Source of the DNA: Bacteriovoracia bacterium
GTDB taxonomy: Bacteria > Bdellovibrionota > UBA1018 > JBFWNL01
Assembly: GCA_050251055.1 (NCBI GenBank)
Contig: JBFWNL010000003.1
Span: 32,001 to 96,000, forward strand
Direction of reading: 5' to 3'
Length of the DNA stretch: 64,000 nt
Positions 57,782-63,731 of this stretch are shown here, in pieces (the first letter of the stretch is position 1; every line of letters starts with the position of its first letter). The notes under the pieces were generated by a model. The model made no database searches and was not told the DNA's origin. It saw only the letters and a list, made by a program, of their open reading frames with translations. A program made the position numbers and the translations under genes.

Positions 57782-57831
57782 CTCTCTCGAAAAGAGCGAT
57801 TTTTTTTGAGGAACCGCTCTTTTCGAGAGAG
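57782..57831. terminator. Long inverted repeat, probable terminator
   Basis: CTCTCTCGAAAAGAGCG / CGCTCTTTTCGAGAGAG, perfect 17-bp stem just after the stop codon. Confidence 0.6.
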
Positions 57832-59216: not shown

Positions 59217-59562
59217 GGACTCGGCTTCCGCTCTCAGCGCTACTCGCGCTTCGGCTGCAGCTCGGGCTCTTTCGCGGCCCGCAAGCGGGCGCCCCGCTCA
59301 GTCCGCCGTTCGAGTCCCGTCTTAAAGTACGAAACGCCACGCGTTTCACTAATTATAAACCCGCCACTTTTTCAAATCAGCCCGAGAGCTTCCGGGCATC
59401 GTTTCCCTCTCTCGAAATATTTTCCTGAGGGGGATACCACGCGTCAGGATGACGCGCGCGCAGCGGCGTGACAGGGCAGGAGCCCGACCCCCTCAGGAAA
59501 ATATTTCGAGAGAGGGAAACGGTGCAGGGAATATTTTAGTGCTGATTTGAAAAAGTGGCGGG
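59217..59562. repeat. Structured element copy 1 (~346 bp)
   Basis: Direct repeat of 60196-60543; perfect 22-bp (59360-59381/59541-59562) and 34-bp (59400-59433/59488-59521) stems. Confidence 0.92.
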
Positions 59563-59643
59563 CCAAATGGGACGAGTATCGAACTTGGTACTGGTCGCAA
59601 GCTGCCTAGTTTGTGGCCAACAGTTGACCGCAAAACGAGGGGT

Positions 59644-59940
59644 TCACTTAGCAGTATCAATAATGCAAAGTCCGGTAGCAATAGCGACTTTGATTCTTAC
59701 GTTCGGAATATTACGTTCTTCTATCGAAAGCTCAGGTGCAAAGTGGGATGCAAGTTTCCCATTTTTTTCACGGCATTTGTCTTCAAGTTTTCCCTTAACT
59801 GCCACATCCATTGATTCAGGTCTAGGTGCCGACCCAACAGATAGCCAATGAGCAGAAATAGGCTCCAGAAGCTCTTCAGCGTGTAAAACTTTTGCTTGTA
59901 GAGTCATGAACAAAACTATCGCGAATGTAGCTAATTTCAT
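59644..59940 (-). CDS. Small secreted hypothetical protein (cassette cargo)
   Basis: GAGG RBS; MKLATFAIVLFMTLQAKVLHA signal peptide; two Cys; AT-rich codons. Confidence 0.65.
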   Translation of the reverse strand: MKLATFAIVLFMTLQAKVLHAEELLEPISAHWLSVGSAPRPESMDVAVKGKLEDKCREKNGKLASHFAPELSIEERNIPNVRIKVAIATGLCIIDTAK

Positions 59941-60062
59941 TTTTTCCTCGCATGCAAATCCATTTAACACCGTGCGTCAAAAAAGTAAATATCTTTTATA
60001 TGCTATGGGCTAGTTCTCTATTTTTGGGCCGTAAGAGCCAAAACGATTGATTATCCGAACGG

Positions 60063-60088
60063 GTGTCTAACGTCAGGGGCGCAGTCTA
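60063..60088. mobile_element. Solo IS3-family-like terminal inverted repeat remnant
   Basis: Minus strand reads TAGACTGCGCCCCTGACGTTAGACAC, resembling IS2/IS150-type ends; no transposase nearby. Confidence 0.4.
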
Positions 60089-60195
60089 ATCCCAATGCAT
60101 TCCGGTTAGAGCTTGGACACAATCAGCCAAGTTACTAGAGTTTTTCTGGATTCGCTTACCACGAACAGAACAAAACTCCACTTTTACCCAAACTA

Positions 60196-60543
60196 GGACT
60201 CGCCTTCCGCTCTCGGCGCTACCCGCGCCTCGGCTGCAGGCCGGGCTCAGGGCCCACCCGCAAGCGGGTACCCGGGCCCTTCCGCCTTTCTTGTCCCGTC
60301 TTCAGGTACGAAACGCTAGCGCGTTTCATTCATTATAAACCCGCCACTTTTTAATAACCGCTCGAGTAATTTCGGACCCAGTTTAACTTTCAGGAAAATA
60401 TATCCCCGAGGGGGATAACACGCGTCAGGAAGACGCGCGCGCAGCGGCGTGAAAGGGCAGGAGCCCGACCCCCTCGGGGATATATTTTCCTGAAAGTTAA
60501 ACTGGGTTGGGAAAACTTGGTGCGGTTATTAAAAAGTGGCGGG
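60196..60543. repeat. Structured element copy 2 (~348 bp), overlapping the tRNA 3' end
   Basis: Perfect 22-bp (60340-60361/60522-60543) and 39-bp (60376-60414/60469-60507) stems; central 54 nt differ from copy 1 at 3 positions. Confidence 0.92.
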
Positions 60544-60613
60544 AGAGACGGGACTCGAACCCGCGACCTTCGCCGTGACAGGGCGACGTTGTAACCAACT
60601 CAACTACTCCCCC
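60537..60613 (-). tRNA. tRNA-Asp (GUC)
   Basis: GGGGGAGTAGTTGAGTTGGTTACAACGTCGCCCTGTCACGGCGAAGGTCGCGGGTTCGAGTCCCGTCTCTCCCGCCA; 77 nt, cloverleaf, encoded CCA. Confidence 0.97.
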
Positions 60614-60875: not shown

Positions 60876-62237
60876 ATGCGCGCTTGGCGAATTCTCGCGG
60901 CGACTTTTTGCACGCTCACGATCCATCTGTCCGCTTACCCGGCCTACGGGAACCCACCCATCGACTTTTCGAATCGAGCCGCGGTGGCGCAATGGCTGGA
61001 CCTGGGTATCGAACAAGGACAGTATCGCGGCGTCGGCTCCACGCTTGAGAATTCAGTCGCGATCGCGGTCCACCAAAAAATCCTATCCGGAGAATCGCCT
61101 TGGAAAGTGGAGGCCGTCGTGAACTACCATCCCATCACGGGCGAAGCCTGGCCGGTGACGGTAAAGGACGTACAAATCTCCCAGTCGCCAGAAACGTTCC
61201 AGAAGGTGGCGGTCAGCGCGACGCTTTTCCTGAGCAAAAAAAGTGACCCCAAAGCACGCCTGGTCGCCGGCGTGAGCGCCGAACGATTTAGCGTCCAGTA
61301 CAATAGCGGCATCGAGGGGCGCAAGGCCGACGCGATCGAGCTCGAAAAATACGTACAGGAAGAAATCACCACGCGATCTCTCTACCGCCGCCGCGCGGTC
61401 GAAATGAAGGAAACCGGCACCATCGGCTTCGTGCCCGGGATCCGCAGTTACAACTACAATTGGGATTCCATTATTCTAGAAAGTGGGCTGAAGCAAAAGC
61501 TCCGCTCCACCGTGGAAGATTTCATTAACCATTACGACTACGCCCGCTGGAAGGAACTGGGCCTGCCCATGAACCGAGGCATCCTGCTCGACGGCCCGCC
61601 CGGCACGGGCAAGAGCATGGTCGCGAAAGTCATCCTCTCGAACGTCGTACAGAAGGTGTACAAAAAGGAAGTCACCTATATTTACGTGGTCGCCCGGCAC
61701 ATCATCAATAAGGAAGCCGTGAAGAACATCTTCGCGGCGGCCCGCCTGCTGAATCCAGCCGTAGTTTTTATCGAGGACATCGACCTCATCGCCGGCACCG
61801 ACCGCAAGGACCGCATGGACGTAAAGAACGAGCTCATGCAGCAGTTAAGCGGCATCCAGGAACTCAACGGCGTGCTCACGATCGGCACCACCAACGTCGG
61901 CGCGCGCATCGACGACGCGCTTAAGCGGTCGAAACGCCTAGGTTTTCAATTCACGATCGGCGCGCCCGCCATGGCCGAGCGCGTGGCCTTGTTCACGGTA
62001 TTCACGAACAAGCTCGCGCACGAAGACTTGGATTTCCGGGCCTACGGCGATCAAAGCGAAGGCATGACCGGGGCGGACATCCAGGAGCTGATCGACGTAG
62101 CCACCGAACGGGCCATGCGTCAGGGATCTTTTAAGGATCCCGGCCAAGGAGATGGCAAGCGTCGCGTATTACTGAAGGACGAGCACCTGCGGTACGCATT
62201 CGCGCTCCGTAAAACCACGCGCATTCCTGGAAAGTAA
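60876..62237 (+). CDS. AAA+ ATPase (classic clade) with signal-peptide-like N-terminus
   Basis: GPPGTGKS Walker A, VVFIEDID Walker B, TTN..IDDALKRSKRL second region of homology. Confidence 0.88.
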   Translation: MRAWRILAATFCTLTIHLSAYPAYGNPPIDFSNRAAVAQWLDLGIEQGQYRGVGSTLENSVAIAVHQKILSGESPWKVEAVVNYHPITGEAWPVTVKDVQISQSPETFQKVAVSATLFLSKKSDPKARLVAGVSAERFSVQYNSGIEGRKADAIELEKYVQEEITTRSLYRRRAVEMKETGTIGFVPGIRSYNYNWDSIILESGLKQKLRSTVEDFINHYDYARWKELGLPMNRGILLDGPPGTGKSMVAKVILSNVVQKVYKKEVTYIYVVARHIINKEAVKNIFAAARLLNPAVVFIEDIDLIAGTDRKDRMDVKNELMQQLSGIQELNGVLTIGTTNVGARIDDALKRSKRLGFQFTIGAPAMAERVALFTVFTNKLAHEDLDFRAYGDQSEGMTGADIQELIDVATERAMRQGSFKDPGQGDGKRRVLLKDEHLRYAFALRKTTRIPGK

Positions 62238-62249
62238 GGGGCAAAGCAT

Positions 62250-63731
62250 ATGAAAAAGTATTTGATGACCATCCTACTCACGTGCCTAGCCGTCACCTTC
62301 ACCTCCACGGCCACCGAAGATGACCCACTCTTCCGCCAGCTTTCGCCGGCGCTGAAGTATTGGCTCCAGGAAAACCCGCTCATCCCCACCGAGATGACGC
62401 TGGATATGTCCTTCCAAAACTATAAGCAGCTGCATGCCTTCGCGCTCGACCGCATCCTCAGCCGCGACGGTTCCGATTGGAAGATCTACAAGGTGAAAAA
62501 CTACGATTCCATGGGGAACGAGTCCCCCGTGGGTTACGCCGAGCTGCCCGTGAATTCCAAAGGCGAAAACCGCGAGATCCTAACGGACGGCTACTACTTC
62601 GCCTATAAGGGCGATCCGAAGACCGGCCCCCGGATCGTGGTGCAACCCACGCAGCGTTACGAATACTACGTTTCGGACCAATACTTCATGATGAAGGACG
62701 CGGTCGAGATTTACTATGCCAAGCGATGGGAAACCGAGGCCCGCGAGTTCAAGGCGCTCCTGGCCCGCGAGCTGAACGAGCGCAATCTCTTCCGCAATTC
62801 CGTGCTGGAGTTCACCACGAGCGACGCCAGCCCGAACTTCAAATCGTTCGCGCTCACTTTCATGGATCACGTGGAGGACATGAAGATCGATTGGAAAGAC
62901 CTCATACTGCCCAAAGACTTCCACCAGATGCTGTACGAGAACACCGAGGGTTTTCTTCAGCTCAACGCTCAATACCGGGAGCACGGCCTGAAGCAGAAAA
63001 AAGGCCTGCTGCTGTACGGTCCTCCGGGCAACGGCAAGAGCCTGGTCGCGCAGACGCTGATCTCGTCGATGTACCAAGGCAAGCTCAAGGACCAAGTAAC
63101 GATGATCGTGGTCACCGCGCGGCATCTTTCGTTCCGCCACGCCGTCAAGGCGCTCTTTGAAGAAGCCGCTCGCCTAGCTCCTTGCGTGATCTTCATGGAG
63201 GACATCGATCTATTGGGTATCAAATCGCGGGATGGCCAGGCAGATAACTCCGCCAAGCAAGCCGAAGTGCTCAACGAGTTCTTGAACGCGATGGATGGCG
63301 TGGTCGACACGAGTGGCCTGCTCATGATCGGCACTACCAACAAAGTCGACGCCATGGATAGCGCGTTGACCCGTTCGGCCCGCTTGGGCATGCACCTCTA
63401 CTTCGAAAACCCCCGCTACCCGGAGCGCAAGGAGTTTTTCCTACGCCTGGGCACGAAGAAAGCCGTGTGGGCGGAGGATGTGACCGCCGAATGGCTGGCG
63501 GGTGAAACCGAAAACCTCGGCGGCGCCGATATCGTGGAGATTATCTCCATCGCCAAGCAAAACGCGTTGCTTGCGGGCTCCTACGCGGGCGAGAAGCTCC
63601 TGCTCACGAAGGCGTTCTTCGCCGATGCGATCGCGCAGATTCGCCGGGATCACGGCCGCCGGGACGATGACCGCGAAGATCTGCTTCCCGAAGCGCTCCG
63701 CAACCTCCACACCCTGGAGGCGACCTTCTAA
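62250..63731 (+). CDS. AAA+ ATPase (classic clade) with signal-peptide-like N-terminus
   Basis: GPPGNGKS, VIFMEDID, TTN..MDSALTRSARL. Confidence 0.88.
   Translation: MKKYLMTILLTCLAVTFTSTATEDDPLFRQLSPALKYWLQENPLIPTEMTLDMSFQNYKQLHAFALDRILSRDGSDWKIYKVKNYDSMGNESPVGYAELPVNSKGENREILTDGYYFAYKGDPKTGPRIVVQPTQRYEYYVSDQYFMMKDAVEIYYAKRWETEAREFKALLARELNERNLFRNSVLEFTTSDASPNFKSFALTFMDHVEDMKIDWKDLILPKDFHQMLYENTEGFLQLNAQYREHGLKQKKGLLLYGPPGNGKSLVAQTLISSMYQGKLKDQVTMIVVTARHLSFRHAVKALFEEAARLAPCVIFMEDIDLLGIKSRDGQADNSAKQAEVLNEFLNAMDGVVDTSGLLMIGTTNKVDAMDSALTRSARLGMHLYFENPRYPERKEFFLRLGTKKAVWAEDVTAEWLAGETENLGGADIVEIISIAKQNALLAGSYAGEKLLLTKAFFADAIAQIRRDHGRRDDDREDLLPEALRNLHTLEATF

Follow-up and report, generated by a model that had tools for sequence, protein, structure and literature searches.

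A 64,000-nt stretch of the genome of a Bacteriovoracia bacterium (assembly GCA_050251055.1, contig JBFWNL010000003.1, positions 32,001 to 96,000; hereafter the window) carries two copies of a palindromic unit behind the gene for tRNA-Asp(GTC). The host gene is intact and lies at 60537..60613 on the minus strand. Read along the tRNA strand, each unit contains the tRNA end, a giant hairpin that pairs with approximately positions 70-76 of the tRNA, a branch hairpin (H1), an antisense copy of positions 54-67 (the guide), a Y-shaped module and a sense repeat that starts at T-loop residue C56; numbering counts back from the CCA end, taken as position 76, with C56 assigned via the T-loop motif. Both copies are anchored on the tRNA-Asp 3′ end and their outer stems pair with its CCA end. 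The seven outermost outer-stem pairs are the tRNA 3′ end itself, which had been overlooked in an earlier note on this DNA, as had the inverted T-arm copy in copy 1.

Copy 2 adjoins the gene, whose final 7 nt form the base of its outer stem. Its giant hairpin (60340..60543) consists of a 22-bp outer stem (60340-60361/60522-60543) and a 39-bp inner stem (60376-60414/60469-60507) with internal loops between them. The tip (60415..60468, plus strand) resembles the known motif TwoAYGGAY and has two AGGA-loop hairpins and one GCA-loop hairpin; its GGA loops are read on the strand antisense to the tRNA. The remaining parts are on the minus strand. H1 with the tetranucleotide GTAC (60306..60327) lies opposite tRNA positions 68-69 in the fold, and is followed by the antisense copy of the T-arm/acceptor strand (60287..60301), in which 9 nt are perfect and the T-loop portion is mismatched, by the Y-shaped module (60202..60286), which has two hairpins and tandem G-A pairs and folds on the tRNA strand, and by a truncated sense repeat of the tRNA 3′ end (60196..60202; 7 nt, from C56).

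The copies are separated by about 0.6 kb of low-GC cargo (59585..60195), with a GC content of 43% over 59575-60195 versus 58% over 60876-63700. The cargo contains an open reading frame (ORF) on the minus strand (59644..59970; 108 aa from GTG, 97 aa from ATG) whose N-terminus, judged by eye, looks like a signal peptide. This ORF had no Pfam match, and a homologue search among proteins of 53-170 aa returned only itself. Copy 1 is anchored on a decayed tRNA-Asp 3′ end (59556..59584, minus strand; 18/24 nt, a 5-nt insertion, final 7 nt intact). Its giant hairpin (59360..59562) has outer and inner stems of 22 bp (59360-59381/59541-59562) and 34 bp (59400-59433/59488-59521), with the tip at 59434..59487 on the plus strand. 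On the minus strand follow H1 with GTAC (59327..59347), an antisense arm (59308..59322) that matches tRNA-Asp positions 53-67 in inverted form at 15/15 nt, the Y-shaped module (59223..59307) and a truncated sense repeat of the tRNA 3′ end (59217..59223; 7 nt, from C56). Overlapping contigs of a DNA sequencing run (X1), possibly the source sample, span 59271-60498 with zero differing letters.

The repeat pair is a real, non-chance feature, and the earlier note, which had read it as two copies that conserve structure rather than sequence, was partly right. The stem lengths it gave are correct, all four stems are perfect, the 54-nt tips are identical at 51 positions, and the small hairpins differ between the copies in the way it described. 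All 117 stem base pairs across both copies are Watson-Crick. Copy 1 folded as DNA with a z-score of -15.6, and the tRNA together with copy 2 folded as RNA with a z-score of -12.7 (0/100 shuffles in each case). Only tRNA reached the Rfam gathering score in the window, and a search of 20 further loci likewise gave nothing but tRNAs above the cut-off. The extent of divergence had been overstated: within the inner 9 bp of the outer stem the copies differ at 4 rather than at most positions, and the inner arms, described as largely different, align at 25/34 positions, with 9 substitutions and 1 indel, all mirrored. G-T pairs are indeed absent inside the stems, but both inner stems extend outward through a G-T pair on the plus strand.

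Over the long stems, 13 mirrored substitutions (10 transversions and 3 transitions, a count that comes from 13 changes in one alignment) and one mirrored indel separate the two copies, with no unmirrored change and no uncompensated state. Stepwise compensation via G-U intermediates would favour transitions. Because the mirrored changes are transversion-rich and lack intermediates, and because arms mirror tRNA or gene ends, arm-to-arm copying, rather than compensatory selection, probably keeps the long stems perfect, as judged from sequence comparison. The earlier reading is supported in so far as fold and geometry are kept while stem sequence varies, but stepwise compensatory selection on the long stems is unsupported. 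If the stems are kept by copying, their lack of G-T pairs says little on DNA versus RNA, and the earlier argument for a DNA function fails in that form; a DNA substrate is plausible on other grounds, namely the module's G(N)nA loops and its invariant G-A pairs. Isolated mismatches in 27 hairpins of the genome were A-C (9), G-T (2) and other (5) on the tRNA strand, and G-T (9) on the anti-tRNA strand. Paired arms diverge by about 26%, near the 23% of the adjacent module. The idea that arms are captured spacers was rejected: 18 arms had no source in the genome (best E 0.057), and short phage or plasmid pieces cover at most 13% of the unit. In addition, the inner arm of copy 2 (60380-60414) shares an exact 12-nt stretch with the arm of copy 1 on the opposite side (59488-59507), a hint that the arms may have evolved through inversion or nested fold-back.

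The unit belongs to a family. A perfect stem of at least 17 bp was present in the gene plus next 330 nt for 18/46 tRNA and transfer-messenger RNA (tmRNA) genes of this genome versus 2/300 random windows. Units are about 180-380 bp with no gene inside, and arms of different loci show no relationship (z ≤2.7 in 35/36 pairs; the two Asp copies, z 4.0). At two loci away from tRNAs (L190 and L194), hairpins mirror, by eye, the stop-codon region of the upstream protein gene. One uncalled tRNA-Ser 3′ half (L153:2298-2506; G000:C2 198340-198506) carries a 53-bp perfect stem with a canonical tip and lies where low-GC DNA begins or ends. Exact-pattern scans gave 0 and 6 loci in genome contigs, 0 in viral contigs and 4 in metagenomes, all lower bounds; the six loci were from Oligoflexia and Bdellovibrionia genomes, which points to the phylum of the host. 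A module model (R1) built from 28 modules matched 23/116 genomes of the order and 21/141 genomes sampled from the phylum, both counts including this genome. From the part of these matches that was retrieved, 96 loci were searched and 101 matches obtained, 99 of them distinct. Tandem units occurred both with and without cargo, and modules in relatives were often found downstream of short terminator-like hairpins lacking a tip.

Guides follow the tRNA behind which they lie. This was scored for the 64 of 99 modules that had a tRNA or tmRNA at most 260 nt upstream and a usable guide; the other 35 included distal copies, contig ends and a few weak matches. The best 13-mer match of the antisense arm averaged 11.6/13 to its own tRNA versus 8.6 to other isotypes, and the own tRNA outscored every other isotype in 46/64 loci. 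The register is also fixed. The guide pairs up to position 67 in 25/50 loci (the mode) and the anti-acceptor arm begins at 69-71 in 28/36 loci, leaving tRNA positions of about 68-69 open opposite H1. The sense repeat from C56 or 57 to the tRNA end was complete in 27/64 loci by a script that undercounts repeats having an early mismatch; where it is truncated, the guide is still complementary (e.g., 14/14 for tRNA-His).

The module itself follows the genome rather than the tRNA. Among 58 modules, identity of the constant part was 74% between different tRNAs of the same genome (68 pairs), compared with 63% for the same anticodon in different genomes (46 pairs), which equals the background (63%; 1392 pairs). 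The nearest neighbour of a module came from the same genome in 15/40 cases and from the same tRNA in 1/40. Copy 1 has an Asp-specific guide and a tip in common with copy 2 alone, yet its module is 95% identical to that of tRNA-His (contig C1) and 77% identical to that of copy 2. Since these affinities differ, units are mosaics, and the two copies are not a simple diverged pair.

In the alignment of the 28 modules, 90.8% of cells were paired, above 500/500 shuffles and every slid control. In agreement with the earlier note, covariation in this small module was strong in the larger alignment: 35/43 pairs change on both sides, although the alignment was built from homology hits, and both relatedness and our choice of structure inflate these figures. 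Tandem G-A pairs were present in 28/28 modules, G...A terminal loops in 27/28 (only 6 of them GNRA) and a CTTG loop in 19/28. Loops of the G...A type are especially stable in DNA. The fold favours the tRNA strand in 27/28 modules as RNA and in 28/28 as DNA.

The opposite strand is favoured by the tips, in 19/21 cases as RNA and 20/21 as DNA, the two Asp tips being near-equal as RNA; among 18 hairpins, GGA-loop hairpins numbered 24 antisense versus 0 sense. All 19 aligned canonical tips have GGA in the tRNA-proximal loop (read from the alignment), and in 7/19 the second loop lacks it. A tip profile found 25 sites in the genome at E ≤0.001, 16 at tRNAs and 9 away from annotated tRNAs. The tRNA-linked tips share one orientation in 16/16 cases, which ruled out a flip-flop of the tip as in rolling-hairpin replication. 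The two Asp tips are a divergent form that the profile missed, and their AGGA hairpin recurs in tips of genomes G013 and G082. The distance from CCA to tip was 65-70 nt in 7/7 long tRNA-anchored hairpins. When measured to the start of the profile match, distances of tRNA-linked tips in this genome (G000) fell into two groups, about 33-49 and 60-66 nt, as if arms had grown in steps of about 33 nt. Three loci, near 202000 of G000:C7 (L046), at tRNA-Pro ggg (L027) and at tRNA-Lys ttt (L035), have other module types undetected by model R1, with antisense arms and/or tRNA 3′ repeats and, in some, GGA-loop hairpins on the tRNA strand.

Some tips lack a module and some modules lack a tip; the unit therefore appears to be made of two parts, with the GGA-loop tip apparently a second, partly independent passenger related to TwoAYGGAY (RF01731). 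Here and below, published systems are compared as described in the accessible portions of the papers cited. TwoAYGGAY likewise has GGA-loop hairpins on a common elongated basal stem and many copies per genome (PMC2864571; 10.64898/2026.09.22.753630), and both CsrA binding and mobility have been proposed for it (PMC2864571; 10.64898/2026.09.22.753630). In the window, two GGA-loop hairpins and a third small one indeed stand on the 34- and 39-bp stems. However, TwoAYGGAY loops read AYGGAY, whereas those of the window read AGGA(T/A) and AGGA, with no pyrimidine before GGA, and the third hairpin is extra; in most canonical tips of the genome, just one of the hairpins carries an AYGGA loop. The RF01731 model gave no match in the window, and its sole match in the genome (contig C14) scored 28.5 bits versus a cut-off of 43. 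Unlike TwoAYGGAY, for which the accessible passages mention no tRNA link (PMC2864571; 10.64898/2026.09.22.753630), the unit bases its stem on the end of a tRNA and links it to an antisense T-arm module. The sequence-specific apical domain of the earlier note stands as a conserved tip, but one that resembles a described motif while failing its model.

We favour, tentatively and with a probability of about 0.4, the reading that the unit is a non-autonomous, retargetable mobile element of tRNA ends whose folded single strand would serve as a recombination site. To the observed architecture, tRNA tracking, register, covariation and mosaicism this reading adds folding in vivo, recombination, copying and an acting enzyme, all of which we infer. 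The tRNA strand would fold so as to imitate, as a duplex, the attachment site at the tRNA end; the Y module would cap one side of this duplex and the hairpin the other, and positions 68-69 would stay open at the branch. One strand would then be exchanged by a trans-acting tyrosine recombinase and the product resolved by replication, steps that could give tandem units and trap cargo such as the 0.6-kb low-GC piece. Fold-back (arm-to-arm) copying would keep the stems perfect and rewrite the antisense arms to match the current host tRNA. Single-strand exchange with replicative resolution is suggested by analogy to integron attC sites (PMC8946536) and the folded attP of CTXphi (PMC3442271). A bolder form, possible but doubtful, is a self-retargeting gene-less element: fold-back copying would mirror the tRNA or gene end at the landing site, and the folded strand would be a tailor-made attachment site that borrows tRNA-targeting integrases and builds cassette arrays.

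Several observations on integrases bear on such a mechanism. In 4 loci, a unit is preceded by a tyrosine integrase gene whose end lies 59-313 nt away. Local island integrases leave a tRNA-end attR of 7-12 nt, as read by eye at sites where comparison with the cognate end was possible, and this matches the segment covered by the anti-acceptor arm. That segment is as long as the 7-bp overlap usual for tyrosine recombinases. The 7 nt preceding copy 1 resemble the short CCA-ending fragments that, by eye, come after most of these integrase genes, and the decayed fragment at 59556-59584 resembles the short attR of local island integrases. The Islander study noted that some displaced fragments have lost a little sequence 3 bp upstream of the discriminator (PMC4383910); this site lies close to the H1 branch point, perhaps by coincidence. 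A clade of tyrosine integrases (L209-L238) is present in 65/116 genomes of the order, usually with a very short CCA-ending tRNA fragment about 20-130 nt past the stop codon, which island finders requiring longer repeats would miss.

Other results weigh against the mobile-element reading. Y1 transposase, reverse transcriptase, IS110 and protelomerase genes were not found in the genome, which is 93.5% complete, and no integron integrase exceeded the cut-off there (best TIGR02249 match 77 bits versus 265). The module lies beside only 2/30 loci of the recurring integrase clade, both previously known, and was absent at 5/5 further integrase loci of this genome. The sense repeat was scored incomplete in 37/64 loci, including both window copies with their 7 nt. 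The strand preference of the tip is opposite to that of the module and is not explained by a single folded strand, and a module on the transcribed strand suits RNA equally well. Clustering of modules by genome could arise from gene conversion without new insertion, and the limits given above for the covariation figures and for the transversion count belong here too.

The searches around modules gave no further lead to an enzyme. Among relatives, a Y1 transposase does not track the module (18/23 module-positive versus 61/93 other genomes carry one). This contig carries none of the 8 Phage_integrase matches of the genome, the recurring tyrosine integrase had no confirmed relative in viral contigs, and other proteins recurring near modules were only generic or syntenic neighbours. 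We rejected the possibility that the module is the attP of integrase islands, given the 2/30 loci; where an integrase gene does precede a unit, the unit is rather the displaced host trailer. Contigs of three DNA runs, which drop rare variants, showed no joints at the tRNA-Asp or tRNA-Gln locus.

The strongest rival explanation, though rather unlikely in itself, assigns the unit a role as RNA. It would be a pre-tRNA trailer whose antisense arms sequester the tRNA 3′ strand until a protein or nuclease bound to the Y module releases or degrades it, with copies homogenised by gene conversion. The preference of the module for the transcribed strand when folded as RNA and the guides that stay tRNA-complementary behind truncated sense repeats both suit this role. 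For 60 loci, the own unit is predicted to lower acceptor-stem pairing from 0.90 to 0.01, whereas in 30 of them a non-cognate unit left it at 0.66 and a shuffled one at 0.48, although equilibrium folding disregards co-transcriptional tRNA folding. In addition, the tRNA-linked repeats (TLRs) of Escherichia coli are transcribed trailers (PMC8144298). However, a trailer role leaves unexplained the sense repeat starting at C56, the cargo-bearing tandem arrays, the patchy, shifting choice of occupied tRNAs and the perfect arms of 32-53 bp, and the scarcity of GNRA among the terminal loops does not suit it.

It is also unlikely that we are looking at two unrelated selfish palindromic repeats at transcript ends, neither with a dedicated recombination site: terminator hairpins lengthened by template switching in replication and carrying a TwoAYGGAY-like miniature tip, and a module spread by homologous recombination between tRNA-end repeats. 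Tips without modules, including those at the 9 sites away from annotated tRNAs, the tipless terminator-like hairpins before modules of relatives and the opposite strand preferences of tip and module would all be expected, and copy-number variation of TwoAYGGAY points to an expansion like that of mobile elements (10.64898/2026.09.22.753630). But the fixed register at 68-69, the 65-70 nt spacing, the single tip orientation and the tRNA-specific guides are hard to obtain without a site-specific process.

A poorer prospect is that the tip acts as an RNA that binds CsrA, displayed by the long stem within an antisense or read-through transcript, with the fold selected at the RNA level. GGA in hairpin loops is a described form of CsrA target (PMC8144298), and csrA is present in the genome; such loops form on the antisense strand only. 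GGA is kept in the tRNA-proximal loop of every aligned canonical tip, the upstream genes here lie on the GGA strand, and isolated mismatches are more often G-T on that strand (9 versus 2). On the other hand, the second loop often lacks GGA, the tRNA transcript reads UCC at the tip loops, and promoter or terminator signals inside the unit showed no excess over shuffles, promoter-like sites numbering 1 versus 1.2 expected; the proposal is also silent on the module and the tRNA-specific guide. Least probable of all is the model of the earlier note, a cruciform DNA site with a sequence-specific apical binding domain and stems kept by compensatory selection, which fits the Watson-Crick stems, the conserved geometry and the conserved tip but is disfavoured by mirrored changes that are transversion-rich without intermediates, by arms that diverge about as much as the module and are templated on tRNA and gene ends, and by the strand asymmetry of tip and module.

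The mobile-element reading invites comparison with known systems. E. coli TLRs are also non-coding units behind tRNA genes, sometimes in tandem; they finish with a repeat of the 3′ end of the upstream gene, 18-19 bp long in E. coli (PMC8144298) and 21 nt in the family here, of which both window copies keep only 7 nt. The accessible TLR descriptions include no antisense tRNA copy, long perfect hairpin or module shared among tRNAs (PMC8144298). Integron attC sites resemble the unit in conserving structure rather than sequence, favouring one strand, as computed folds predict for the module, and flanking cargo (PMC8946536). Unlike attC arrays, the modules come without an integron integrase over the cut-off, and the first ORFs after them are not co-oriented (51 on the tRNA strand and 41 opposite, from the 92 ORF-bearing rows of 99); in addition, the paired arms of the unit duplicate the target tRNA and vary along with it. 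Islands that target tRNA genes share the regenerated tRNA and displaced 3′ fragment, subsites at the T-loop and T/acceptor junction, tandems and low-GC cargo (PMC4383910; 10.1101/2020.11.02.365908). A displaced fragment in the same orientation is present at 59556-59584, but the integrase gene expected inside an island is missing, the cargo having one orphan ORF only. The unit further differs from islands in being small and gene-less with inverted target copies, and local island integrases are mostly without it. REPINs, like the unit, are non-autonomous hairpin-forming miniature DNA, with arms made of conserved REP sequences spread over extragenic space (PMC3116915), whereas the arms here are locus-specific and placed at tRNA ends, with no conserved REP doublet as inverted arms and no Y1 (RAYT) transposase in the genome.

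We found no published description of the combined architecture of target-tracking antisense arms and a shared module in the open-access literature searched; the accessible passages of two Geobacter genome papers (PMC2996986, PMC2700814) gave no match. By itself, the tip would be a form of a known motif. tRNA 3′ ends are the chief landing sites for horizontally acquired DNA, and the choice of site is credited to the integrase. If our reading is true, a gene-less unit with target-matched antisense arms, shared among tRNAs and with its arms kept perfect by copying, would add a new layer at these ends, as a parasite, a decoy or a cassette system. The self-retargeting form, if true, would amount to programmable site-specific integration in which the DNA substrate, rather than RNA or protein, is reprogrammed. 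The unit also offers a way to test ideas about TwoAYGGAY and tRNA-linked repeats, both of them repeat classes that still lack an explanation. As to method, mirrored changes in long perfect palindromes need a transition/transversion or copying test before compensatory selection is claimed.

Several minor observations concern cargo and neighbours. Around the cargo ORF, short GTTRRRY-like words and one inverse word occur on the minus strand (59963-59969, 60067-60073 and about 60110-60120), which we take to recall integron cassette ends; inspection by eye showed no convincing inner attC repeats. Related proteins recur as module-adjacent cargo in two unrelated records (L116:5866-6525, with DUF6973, and L188:1848-2498), and ParE-HTH and DUF3892/DUF4431 pairs are also among the cargo. 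At L197 (G000:C1 75772-75893), a nested palindrome that contains an assembly gap is followed by an ORF that presumably resembles the four-helix-bundle proteins of 23S rRNA intervening sequences. A separate intergenic 20-bp, 95% inverted repeat at 57782-57831 has 12 nt in common with the inner arm of copy 1, possibly by chance. Upstream of tRNA-Asp, a pair of neighbouring AAA ATPase genes, whose long N-terminal regions lack annotation, occupies 60876-63731.

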